In this document: positions 27,001 through 30,000 of the stretch, one piece after another | Numbering within the stretch: position 1 is the stretch's first letter | Layout of the letters: the number at the start of each line of letters is the position of its first letter | Assembly: GCF_003991155.1 (NCBI RefSeq) | Contig: NZ_CP031297.1 | Strand: one strand, 5' to 3' | DNA from: Escherichia coli | GTDB taxonomy: Bacteria > Pseudomonadota > Gammaproteobacteria > Enterobacterales > Enterobacteriaceae | Length of the DNA stretch: 64,000 nt | Position numbers: made by a program

Positions 27001-30000
27001 CAATTTTAACCCTACCGGGGTGCTTTCCCGGAAGGGATGGGCACCCTGCTAATCCAGGAGGCCCTATGCAACAAACATTAAACTTTGATCTATCAGAACA
27101 ACCCATCCCAGTGCTTTTGCGTGGGGATAAGTGGGATTCTGTTTGGTCAGAACTGACTGATAACGAGGATTTGAACTTCGTTGATGCCAGTAGAGGAACC
27201 AGTCTGTCATCGTTGATCACGTCATCGGTTGAGTCCATTCACACGGCCTTAATTGATGGGTGGACCATGATGATCGGCTATTCCAGTGGTAAAGATTCTG
27301 AAACGGTCTTGCACCTGTTCCTGATGGCCCTGATCCGGGCTGTAAGGAGTGGGGCGACCATCAGCCAGCACCACTTCATCTTGCACACTGACACACTGAT
27401 CGAAAGCCCAGAGGTAAGGTGGCTGGCGGATCAGAAACTGGCCGAGCTGGAGCGTTTCATTGCGAAGGAAAACCTTCCTCTGACCATCGTTCTAGCAAAG
27501 CCTGGGATCTCGCAGAGTTGGACGGGCCGAATCCTTACTGGGAGGGGGTTGCCTACGTTTTCCAACTCCACGGCCCGCCAGTGTAGCCAGGATTTAAAAA
27601 TCACCTCTGCCAAAAGAGCGAAGGCAGCTTATATGCGAGAGCTTCCCAAAGAGGTTCGACAGAAAGTCTGCCTTTTGCTGGGCAGTCGTGATGCTGAAAG
27701 CACTATTCGTGCGGCCAACATTGCAAAACAGCGAGGAAGCTCAGATCGCGTCATTAAGACGAAAGATGGGGGTGAGCTGTATGTGGTGAAAAACTGGTTG
27801 GCGAGTGATGTCTGGGAGTTCTTACTATCCGCTGGCATGGGCTCAGCATATCCTCTGCCAAGTTACTTGGAGAGCAATGTCACTACGGCAGAGCTTTACA
27901 AGGCGGCAACAGGGGAGTGCGTGTGGTCGGCAACAGAGAAGAAGGCCAGTGACGCCTGTGGCGCTCGCTTCGGTTGCTGGGCTTGCCAGGCTGTTGGGTT
28001 GGATAAGTCAATGGAGACGTTGCTTGCCACGGACCCTGAAAGGCATGGCTATATGTCGGGGCTGAACCGCATCCAGCGCTACTTGGCAAAACGCCGGTAC
28101 GCATGGGAAGACCGCCATCCCGTAGGTCGAACGATTTACGAGGGCGGATACATCAAAATACAGCCGGACGTTTACAGTCCTGTTTTCCTAGAACGATTGC
28201 TTCATGTCTGTTGCAGCATGGACTACATGGAGCAAAAGAGAGCTGATGAGCTGGCATACAAGCTGGCTACTGGTCAAGCAGAGGATAACGACTGGAACCG
28301 TCGAATGGCAGAGCCACAATTCCGGATCATATCGGAAGAGGCTTTAGTCCATATCGACTTCATGTGGGCCTTCCATCATTTCAATGATAAGCCTTTCCAT
28401 GCCCTGGAGATTTACCACAGGGTTTGGTCGATGGGTGATCTGGACTTGCTGGAAGACGAGCCGCAGTGTGAAACCGTTCCTCAGTCACCAATTCCGAAGC
28501 CATTGTGGTTGAAGGTTGGTCGCTGGGGCGATGGTTCGCTTTCTGATGGCTTGGCCGATCCGTTAGCGGAAATGGCTTACTTTGACGGCGGGGATGACCC
28601 GTTGGCAGCGCAAGTGATCAATACCGCAGACGGAAAGAGAAGGGTGGTTTGCTTCGCAGAAGATGATGAAGTGAAAGTCGATCCCGACTCCGCTGCGTTC
28701 ATCATCTGGAACGAATACCCGCGACTAAGGGAGTCTGTACTAAAGGGACATTATACGCCCGGTAGTGCAGCGCAGTTCTACCTTCGGTTCGGAGCAATCC
28801 AGCTTGCGAAAGGAAAAGGCGCTTTGTATCACCGTATGATGCAAAGAGGTCAAACCTACCACCAGATGGGCCTTACAGGGCTACAGACGATGGAAGGAAT
28901 CCAACAGCGCAAGGATGTCAAAGTGCTTAGCGATGCTAAGTACAAAGATCTGGTGAAGCGAAAAATCAAGGGAAGACTGGCAACGGTACGCTGGTGGGTC
29001 AACTTGCACTTAACGTTCAAGTACCATCTGCACCACCGTACTCCGACGGGGTTGTTCATCGAGAAGCAACTTGACCAGGAAGCAATGGAAGAACAGAAAC
29101 GGCATCAGGAGCGATGGTTTAACTACGTGACTGACGCGATGCTTTGTTACTCCAGCGCATTCTGTATGAGCGTCATGGAAGGGCGAGAGGGGAGCGGAAA
29201 CGCCAACATTCGTCGTTACATGGCCGCGACCAGAAGGAAGGCTTATACGGCCCTCTGCGAGCTCTTGGACAATACTGACGCCCAGTGGATGAATGATGTG
29301 GTCCAGAGTGCCGTAGGGCAGTATGAGGCGATACAGGCAGCCCTAACCGAAGGTTCCGCGCTTGCTATCTATCTCGACTGGATCAACCTACTGTCAAAAC
29401 GCCATCCAGCCTCTTTGGAGCGACATGTCAGAACGATGATCAAGGCGGTTCAACGCTTACATCGCCGCGACGACACAGAGTTGCAAAGAGGACAGCAAGG
29501 CTTGTCCTTGGCCGCATAAAAAGCCCTCCTTCGGGAGGGCTTTTTCTTTTGCACCCCAAAAGGGCAATTACAGCGTTTTACCCTTTTAGGTGGCTGTCAT
29601 ACTCTTTGTTCATTGTCAGCGCTTGCTGGCTATAACGGTAGCTGGCCCAAAACAGCAATAACCTAACCCCTCGGGAGGAAACCCCTCCTGGGTTCTCTCC
29701 CACAAACAAAGGAGAGAAGCATGAGCCTAGACAAGTTAAGTCGGCTGGTGGACCAACAACGAAAGATCCAGGATGAAATCGACAATGAAATCATTCTGGC
29801 CGTCAAAGAGGTGTTGGCTACAAACTCAGTCGGTTTAGCCCGTGAGCTTGTTGGGGGTGTCCCGCAAGATCATCCATTCCATCCGTTTTTACTCGCTATA
29901 GCTAAGCAGCTTGACCCGAGATAACTAAGTAACCCAACCGGGTACACCAAGGCCCGGTCGGCTTTGGTGTACCTCCAACCAATTTTGGAGGCACTATGTC

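Follow-up and report, generated by a model that had tools for sequence, protein, structure and literature searches.

Among the closest known relatives of the protein considered here are DndC and the other phosphoadenosine phosphosulfate (PAPS)-domain proteins of DNA sulfur-modification systems. Such proteins also act outside dnd clusters: BrxP, a fusion of SspD and SspB, shows both that DndC homologues in other settings can make phosphorothioate (PT) and that fewer partners can suffice when domains are fused (PMC12914056). A PAPS domain fused to Dam, encoded by vibriophage p0018, is an anti-Dnd factor that confers resistance to the Dnd system of the host (Piel et al., bioRxiv 10.1101/2021.05.05.442762). 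On mobile elements, orphan genes of the PAPS-reductase/DndC-like type are a recognised, uncharacterised theme, and the gene described below had itself already been annotated. This gene, vcrx113, lies in a stretch of 64,000 nucleotides (nt) of Escherichia coli DNA (contig NZ_CP031297.1, assembly GCF_003991155.1), here called the window, in which the DNA around it is IncC plasmid backbone. Judging from sequence comparison, its product appears to be a catalytically intact, stand-alone relative of DndC. It belongs to a large sister group of DndC, found mostly on conjugative plasmids and distinguished by a module and C-terminal signals of its own, and it may act on DNA while tethered to the sliding clamp.

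The gene was identified as vcrx113 of plasmid pVCR94 (84172-86622 in that plasmid) by its length and coordinates, pVCR94 positions being converted to those of the window with an offset of 57106. It is the sole long open reading frame (ORF) in its region, the opposite strand being rich in stops. The original prediction, made from the sequence of the window, had placed here an 817-residue ORF with an N-terminal PP-loop (SGKDS) domain and a DndC-like cysteine cluster, all of which held: the ORF has an ATG start preceded by AGGAGG, and the domain and fold searches led to the DndC/PAPS-reductase fold (PAPS reductase/adenine nucleotide alpha-hydrolase in Foldseek) rather than to an unrelated one. 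The DndC models of NCBIfam and PADLOC matched amino acids (aa) ~53-464 of Vcrx113 with E values of 1e-34 to 1e-41. The score against TIGR03183, the DndC equivalog model, was 119.9 bits, which is below the cut-off of 290.4; other members of the sister family scored 116-147 bits, while two true DndC proteins that were recovered as distant hits, P0101 and P0100, reached 668.5 and 364.8 bits, respectively. PP-loop residues S73, G75, K76, D77 and S78 were invariant across 32 homologues and these two proteins. Vcrx113 has every residue that is invariant between the family and true DndC in the alignment with P0100 and P0101, which adds R171, C173, K178, R208, E211, R215, C285, C298, C304, C307, D313 and S315 to those five (Table 1). 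An AlphaFold2 (AF2) model built from the 32-sequence alignment had a mean predicted local distance difference test score (pLDDT) of 85.7 and a predicted template modelling score of 0.73. Its sole weak internal stretch was the cysteine loop at aa 288-301, a low confidence that, from the model, probably reflects a cofactor-dependent site.

The RefSeq name of the protein and the fold that it shares with CysH might suggest a genuine CysH-type PAPS reductase of sulfate assimilation. This identity was rejected: NCBIfam gave no CysH match at E ≤ 1, and neither the ECG[LIV]H motif nor PF01507 was found, while the cysteines are specific to DndC and the length also speaks against CysH. We regard it as effectively refuted. 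The database name is therefore misleading, being a superfamily label only, and this holds whatever becomes of the clamp-tethered reading set out below. Pfam returned nothing for Vcrx113 even at E ≤ 10, PF01507 included; PF01507 does match 27 of the 32 homologues, and was the sole Pfam family from the alignment search. Since it gives Vcrx113 no match, surveys of PAPS-reductase domains that rely on Pfam would overlook this widespread plasmid protein. In PHROGs only generic 'PAPS reductase' families were found. The PADLOC model MTase_II, which we take to represent PAPS-domain/methyltransferase fusions, matched aa 31-339.

The top Foldseek matches in the PDB were the PAPS domain of FAD synthase, TtuA (an Fe-S sulfurtransferase that acts as a tRNA 2-thiouridine synthase), CysH, APS reductase and CysD, with NAD synthetase also found; a PDB sequence search retrieved no solved DndC, and only weak matches to the PP-loop of FAD synthase. 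Matches of this kind could indicate an RNA- or small-molecule-directed PP-loop thiolase or adenylyltransferase (TtuA/TtcA/FAD-synthase-like) with an accessory role in metabolism or in the tuning of translation, unrelated to DNA. That no DNA-binding domain was recognised in Vcrx113, and that its additional module is acidic, would agree with such a role. Its sequence, however, is far nearer to DndC than to the tRNA thiolases (CysD was the sole other NCBIfam match, with E > 1e-3), the neighbourhoods of its homologues consistently contain mobile-element genes of DNA metabolism, and the clamp-binding-type motif described below points to action while bound to DNA, all of which makes this alternative quite unlikely.

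The homology to DndC extends to aa 441-464 of Vcrx113, true DndC diverging past aa ~440, whereas the conserved family core covers aa ~50-630 (to ~640 in alignments). Between the two limits lies a module that yielded a confident model when folded alone (pLDDT 87). An AFDB50 search with this module (aa 455-625) found it only in proteins of the vcrx113 family, from Salmonella Typhi pHCM1 to Burkholderia, Cupriavidus and Acidithiobacillus, and revealed no informative fusion partners. The helical tail that follows, with AF2 helices at aa 623-657, 660-706, 713-736, 739-762 and 771-803, is missing from family members of 570-670 aa. The profile and structure checks proposed for the C-terminal region thus resolved it into a family module, a helical tail and a disordered end, and the 500-aa extension that had been read from the sequence had to be abandoned: the module is family-wide, and the clade-specific part is only aa ~626-817 (~190 aa).

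The C-terminal ends were compared among 130 family representatives, each of at least 540 aa. In 23 of them (18%), a strict Q[LIVM]x[LIVM]F motif lay no more than 14 aa from the end, compared with a mean of 0.1 when the tails were shuffled (0 of 2000 shuffles) and with 0.22% of internal 14-aa windows. A looser penta- or hexapeptide motif was found in 57 of the 130 (44%; 6.0 expected). In the 31 anchored cases, the third position of the motif was D or S in 18, and the motif ended 0-2 residues from the C-terminus in 19. Distant members of the family end in QLDLFAA, QLSLFAA, QLRLFAA, QLQLFAA, QMELFAA, QLSIF, QLALF or QLDMF, while the ends of close relatives include QQGLSLAA (IncC), QVVLSLAA, QLALPLVA, QPSLPL..., QGELFIAA and QQSLFA...; close relative P0004 carries QLALPL. 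A Qxx[L/F]x[L/F]-type motif was kept in 7 of 11 relatives with 58-98% identity, despite flanks that could not be aligned. The consensus for binding to the beta sliding clamp is QL(D/S)LF, usually located in flexible termini (PMC6511837), and by this likeness the family tails appear to carry a motif of the clamp-binding type. A literature search found no paper in which the sliding clamp is connected with DndC or PAPS reductases. To our knowledge, no bacterial DNA-modification enzyme has been reported to bind the clamp, and the search found none either. The terminal dipeptide AA was present in 41 of the 130 representatives (32%; ~0.9% expected), independently of the motif (21 of the 57 proteins with it and 20 of the 73 without). 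C-terminal -LAA or -AA ends like that of ssrA are a type of ClpX signal (C-motif-1) and, by analogy, the -AA end of the family proteins is a possible degron.

A motif so strongly enriched in the family might also mean that Vcrx113 modulates or hijacks the host clamp, for example by recruiting the replisome to the plasmid or slowing host replication during transfer, with the DndC-like domain playing a secondary part. Many proteins of mobile elements are described in the literature as binding the beta clamp, among them insertion sequence (IS) transposases and MuC of phage Mu. Set against this, the conserved part is the 580-aa enzymatic core; the tail is short, has a degenerate form in IncC and is lacking from some clades, and we consider a role of this kind very improbable.

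An exhaustive profile-free search returned 1073 clusters of the vcrx113 family at 50% identity, 239 of them at E < 1e-30; most members have 570-650 aa and align to aa ~50-610/630 of Vcrx113. Homologues were present in 2464 of the 72,556 plasmid records of PLSDB (3.4%), 2042 of which (83%) are conjugative. The carriers include IncHI1/HI2 plasmids, Pseudomonas megaplasmids, and plasmids of Burkholderia and Ralstonia; the phage collection contained essentially no homologues of the long form. A megablast search with the DNA of vcrx113 itself retrieved 700 PLSDB records, of which 623 matched with at least 99% identity and 692 were predicted to be conjugative, the plasmids having been found in Klebsiella, Escherichia, Salmonella, Citrobacter, Providencia, Vibrio and Aeromonas. 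Virtually every IncC plasmid retains the gene; in ~4% of the IncC records the copy is truncated or split by an IS, and in two IncC plasmids it is interrupted by an IS3-family element. Three points seem to be new: the delineation of a protein family that is sister to DndC and has a private module, the near-exclusive association of this family with conjugative plasmids, and its C-terminal signals of the clamp-binding and -AA types.

Published transcriptomic data place vcrx113 in the transfer-induced AcaCD regulon, alongside the orphan DNA methyltransferase gene dcm1. Its RNA-seq reads numbered 298 in the wild type, 6 in the absence of acaCD and 979 when acaDC was induced (q = 0), the corresponding values for dcm1 being 501, 4 and 2677; the same-strand block vcrx098-vcrx125 behaves in the same way, and vcrx115 was strongly induced, from 50 to 6412 (Carraro et al. 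2014, PMC4207636 Dataset S1). The three dcm genes are reported to help an IncC plasmid past a restriction barrier of Vibrio cholerae (Roy et al. 2020). No phenotype has been reported for vcrx113, and the literature search returned no paper naming a function for it, and none pairing IncC with PAPS reductase; a search on DndC-like proteins or orphan dndC gave only the BREX-4 paper (PMC12914056). The gene is not in the leading region: it lies at 84 kb in pVCR94, in which vcrx001 (mobI) starts at position 1, and its expression depends on AcaCD. We take vcrx001 to adjoin oriT.

Taken together, the catalytic domain, the tail and the regulation are consistent with the idea that Vcrx113 is a clamp-tethered, ATP- and sulfur-dependent enzyme that modifies DNA or counters restriction; we infer its chemistry and target from sequence, and hold this reading tentatively, as possible rather than probable. 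It also agrees with the MTase_II match, with the orphan methyltransferases and the DndB-domain protein found near homologues (see below), and with the precedents of BrxP, the p0018 fusion and the dcm genes. The tail would dock the protein onto DnaN at replication forks or clamp-loaded primer termini, including the sites at which the replacement and complementary strands are synthesised during conjugation. By PP-loop chemistry of the kind used by DndC, TtuA and ThiI, ATP would serve to adenylate a DNA oxygen, for which sulfur from a persulfide of host IscS would be exchanged through the Cys/Fe-S site. The outcome would be a covalent mark on nascent DNA, PT or a related thio-modification, which would be written in donors competent for transfer, in fresh transconjugants or in both, and it would protect the plasmid against nucleases in the following host, a part also played by the co-regulated Dcm methylases. 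In place of DndD and DndE (or SspB and SspC), the tether to the clamp, the additional module or both might serve, and the -LAA end may keep the protein short-lived via ClpXP. That the family as a whole constitutes a single-polypeptide, replisome-coupled DNA sulfur-modification system, in which the module and the clamp tether have replaced DndD/DndE (or SspB/SspC, or BrxC) and new DNA is marked during its synthesis, rather as by DNMT1 via PCNA, seems to us doubtful. In that case conjugative plasmids, ~3% of all those sequenced, would possess a portable, host-independent anti-restriction mark induced along with their transfer genes.

Several observations weigh against a clamp-tethered modification enzyme. 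PADLOC detected no Dnd, Ssp or BREX component among the 20 flanking ORFs (14566-35402 of the window, i.e. within ~13 kb), and neither did NCBIfam among the 10 nearest (22755-32652), in agreement with the original prediction that dndA/B/D/E or ssp partners are lacking. Yet Dnd, Ssp, Tdp and BREX-4 all require a P-loop NTPase (DndD, SspC or BrxC) beside the PAPS-domain protein, and PT was absent from gut isolates in which a PAPS-reductase gene stood alone (PMC12914056). The family module is acidic, with an isoelectric point (pI) of 5.0, and is not obviously DNA-binding. The IncC motif QQGLSL is degenerate, with Q instead of L at position 2 and L instead of F at the end; moreover, the motif is absent from 4 of the 11 close relatives and from the whole IncHI2 clade. 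Neither the strict motif nor the AA end occurred in any of 121 canonical DndC proteins, which speaks for a family-specific tail, but this control set is of low diversity (72-87% identity). When entry into V. cholerae O395 was studied by transposon sequencing, only vcrx089-093 stood out, not vcrx113 (Roy et al. 2020); together with the dependence on AcaCD, this gives no support to the action on entry put forward in the original prediction. Finally, the gene is dispensable for plasmid maintenance, since ~4% of the IncC records have no intact copy.

The composition of the neighbourhood bears on whether Vcrx113 has partners. Only three of the 20 flanking ORFs received names, namely dcm1, dcm3 and a YfbR-type 5'-deoxynucleotidase gene (vcrx115), so that the nearby methyltransferase and nucleotide-metabolism genes of the original prediction are real. 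When the 20 ORFs were compared by tblastn with 13 homologue loci, only dcm1 and one small ORF recurred, both solely beside the 62%-identical relative, and none recurred beside homologues in six more distant element types. Vcrx113 travels alone, without conserved partner genes. The joint function suggested for this group of genes stands in so far as vcrx113 is co-regulated by AcaCD with dcm1 and the 5'-deoxynucleotidase gene in the RNA-seq data, but falls as a conserved multi-gene system. The upstream gene vcrx112, with which it is predicted to form an operon, had no PADLOC or NCBIfam match and no tblastn match in the 13 loci; not being conserved beside homologues elsewhere, it was rejected as an obligate partner. 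Around the homologues, orphan DNA methyltransferases lay within ~4 kb in seven of the eight other informative loci, and further recurrent neighbours were RadC, ParB-nuclease proteins and Prok-E2/ThiF/JAB clusters. Clusters of Prok_Ub, Prok-E2, JAB and ThiF adjoin homologues in two unrelated elements (L004 4414-6013; L011 798-4425). In Citrobacter plasmids, a 669-aa homologue (L006 8001-10010) lies two genes downstream of a gene for a DndB-domain (PF14072) protein (L006 6488-7558), with RadC and an N6-methyltransferase beyond; this was the only Dnd-family neighbour seen beside an orphan copy. On metagenomic contig L014, the 62%-identical homologue (6429-8885) is preceded by a frameshifted dcm1 homologue (4329-5720) and lies 5 kb from a complete dndBCDE on the other strand (13884-18885), which has its own 580-aa DndC. 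Since this contig carries both, the homologue and canonical DndC are not interchangeable. A ThsB-TIR gene is also present on it.

A homologue so close to a complete dnd cluster, where it is not redundant with DndC, agrees with the leading rival explanation, namely that Vcrx113 antagonises the PT-based defences of the recipient (Dnd, Ssp or BREX-4) by acting on the DndCDE/SspBCD machinery or on the sulfur supply, thereby sparing the plasmid cuts of the DndFGH/SspE type. The p0018 fusion provides a precedent, PAPS reductases regulated by Aca in phages have been proposed in the literature to be anti-defence genes, and several plasmids have neighbours of the anti-restriction type (RadC, orphan methyltransferases, ParB-nuclease). 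On the other hand, the strict conservation of all catalytic residues favours an enzyme over a decoy, the clamp-binding-type tail is left unexplained, and Dnd or Ssp systems occur in only a few percent of genomes (PMC12914056), yet the gene is present in essentially all IncC plasmids. This explanation, too, is open to considerable doubt. A different role, in which Vcrx113 would write a PT-type self-mark that is read by a plasmid nuclease, for defence or exclusion against phages or competing plasmids in a manner analogous to Dnd, Ssp and BREX type 4, is suggested by DndC homologues being the writers of four defence systems (PMC12914056) and by the best PADLOC matches being DndC models. PADLOC, however, found neither a restriction component nor an effector or reader (DndFGH, SspE, PbeABCD or BrxCZL) near vcrx113, no neighbour is conserved across elements, and the gene is not expressed constitutively but under the conjugation activator; such a role is highly unlikely.

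The features of the locus are collected in Table 1. Direct folding of the RNA confirmed the strong terminator that had been predicted after the gene, with a 12-bp stem, a UUCG loop and a U-run (free energy -24.3 kcal/mol, z = -4.0). A consensus terminator scan had missed it because the stem takes up part of the T-run. The terminator shares a few bases with the AcaCD box of the vcrx114-119 unit, and this box and the transcription start site of that unit are the 3' boundary of the vcrx113 unit. In one IncC plasmid (NZ_CP028170.1), a group II intron (ltrA; L001 22939-24327) lies between the terminator and vcrx114. A scan of 23000-31500 found no sigma-70-like promoter. The regions 5' of vcrx113, vcrx114 and vcrx115 (26979-27065, 29640-29720 and 29925-29995; z = -1.9, -3.95 and -4.1, respectively) each fold into two successive hairpins, the first rich in GC and the second burying the Shine-Dalgarno sequence, resembling the structure reported to sequester the ribosome-binding site before vcrx089. 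Hairpins of this kind may provide a shared translational control in the AcaCD-dependent block. The plasmid-borne phosphatase encoded by vcrx115, predicted to act on deoxynucleoside monophosphates (dNMPs), could bear on defences based on nucleotide pools or dNMP signals.

Table 1. Features of vcrx113 and its surroundings (positions are those of the window)
Feature	Position	Strand	Details and basis
vcrx113 coding sequence	27066..29519	+	817 aa, ATG start; RefSeq WP_001187969.1, product name 'phosphoadenosine phosphosulfate reductase'
Shine-Dalgarno sequence AGGAGG	27056..27061	+	4 nt 5' of the ATG; in the 3' arm of a predicted hairpin (RNA fold of 26976-27075, z = -1.9)
PP-loop ATP-pyrophosphatase/PAPS-reductase-fold catalytic domain, aa 20-345	27123..28100	+	AF2 pLDDT ~90, Foldseek, DndC hidden Markov models
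PP-loop motif S73-S-G-K-D-S78 (Y-S-S-G-K-D-S at aa 72-78)	27282..27299	+	Alignments
C173	27582-27584	+	Invariant in comparison with true DndC
Cysteine cluster C285 ... C298-GARFG-C304-WA-C307	27918..27986	+	DndC-type putative [4Fe-4S] site; alignment
Family-specific module of unknown fold, aa 455-625	28428..28940	+	Conserved YLRxGxVxLAxG...RRxQ...GLxG; absent from true DndC
Helical hypervariable tail, aa 626-803	28941..29474	+	Basic, pI 9.4; IncC/IncA/Vibrio clades only; AF2 and 32-homologue alignment
Disordered end, aa 804-817	29475..29516	+	pLDDT < 50 (AF2, aa 803-817)
Q810-Q-G-L-S-L815, beta-clamp-binding-like hexapeptide	29493-29510	+	Followed by terminal A816-A817 (ssrA-like -LAA end)
Rho-independent terminator AAAAAGCCCUCC-UUCG-GGAGGGCUUUUU-CUUUU	29518..29550	+	Overlaps the vcrx113 stop codon
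vcrx112 (128 aa), predicted operon partner upstream of vcrx113	26592..26978	+	Rockhopper operon vcrx112-vcrx113 in PMC4207636 Dataset S1
AcaCD-binding site of the vcrx114-119 unit	29544..29572	+	PMC4207636 supplementary table, box 86650-86678 in pVCR94
Transcription start site of vcrx114-119	29607-29609	+	PMC4207636, 86713-86715 in pVCR94
vcrx115, YfbR-type 5'-deoxynucleotidase	29996-30601		NCBIfam equivalog, 128.5 vs cut-off 122 bits
dcm1, C5-methyltransferase	23614-25239		PADLOC/NCBIfam
dcm3	19563-20486		PADLOC

Further from vcrx113, the published host-defence-evasion (hde) operon (vcrx089, encoding an AAA ATPase, vcrx090, ssb, bet and exo) is located at 9743-14378 of the window, with sfx upstream of it on the minus strand (6795-7655); a 935-aa ORF at 3949-6756 is presumably traN. 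The hde operon, sfx and this presumed traN confirm the IncC backbone context. Two adjacent or overlapping palindromes, one with 15-nt arms that are 93% complementary and the other with 28-nt arms that are 82% complementary and have no spacer, occupy 22606-22681, between a 139-aa ORF ending at 22620 and the ORF labelled vcrx107, and are possibly a terminator or a protein-binding site.

IncC plasmids are among the chief carriers of genes for carbapenemases and multidrug resistance, and the hde operon and the dcm genes explain their unusually broad host range only in part; vcrx113 is among the largest conserved genes of their backbone without a known role. If it does encode a clamp-tethered DNA modifier, this would be the first replisome-coupled DNA-modification enzyme of bacteria, a fifth way to make sulfur-type DNA marks, one that needs no partner, and a new class of plasmid anti-restriction function, possibly a target for limiting the spread of plasmids. 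Should that reading fail, the recognition of a DndC sister group with a characteristic module and characteristic C-terminal signals still stands.

Compared with DndC/DptC (TIGR03183), Vcrx113 has in common the SGGKDS-type PP-loop, the R-x-C motif and the cluster E-C...C-G-x-R-x-G-C-x-x-C, the N-terminal 440 aa being alike (26-27% identity); it differs in having no dndB, dndD or dndE neighbours, in the replacement of the C-terminal third by a 170-aa module, and in its clamp-type tail. SspD and BrxP are DndC homologues that, like Vcrx113, act outside dndCDE clusters. PADLOC, however, gave Vcrx113 only the DndC and MTase_II models at E ≤ 1, and it has neither a match to a DUF4007/SspB-like domain nor an SspC/BrxC NTPase nearby. 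The PAPS-Dam protein of p0018 resembles Vcrx113 in having a PAPS-reductase-fold domain, in being encoded by a mobile element and in its link with orphan DNA methylation, in that case used against a host defence; its PAPS domain, however, is short (aa 4-175) and fused to Dam, whereas Vcrx113 is a full, unfused DndC-like protein with the cysteine cluster. With the [4Fe-4S] PP-loop thiolases TtuA and TtcA, it shares the fold and probably the chemistry, while there is no sequence kinship beyond the PP-loop. In these enzymes an oxygen is adenylated and sulfur is then inserted from an Fe-S-bound sulfide, the substrate being tRNA. Clients of the beta clamp such as Pol II, Pol IV, Hda and MutS have a terminal QL[SD]LF or QLxLxL motif in a disordered terminus, as members of the vcrx113 family appear to have by sequence. 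In eukaryotes, a DNA-modifying enzyme, DNMT1, is coupled to replication via a PIP box and PCNA.

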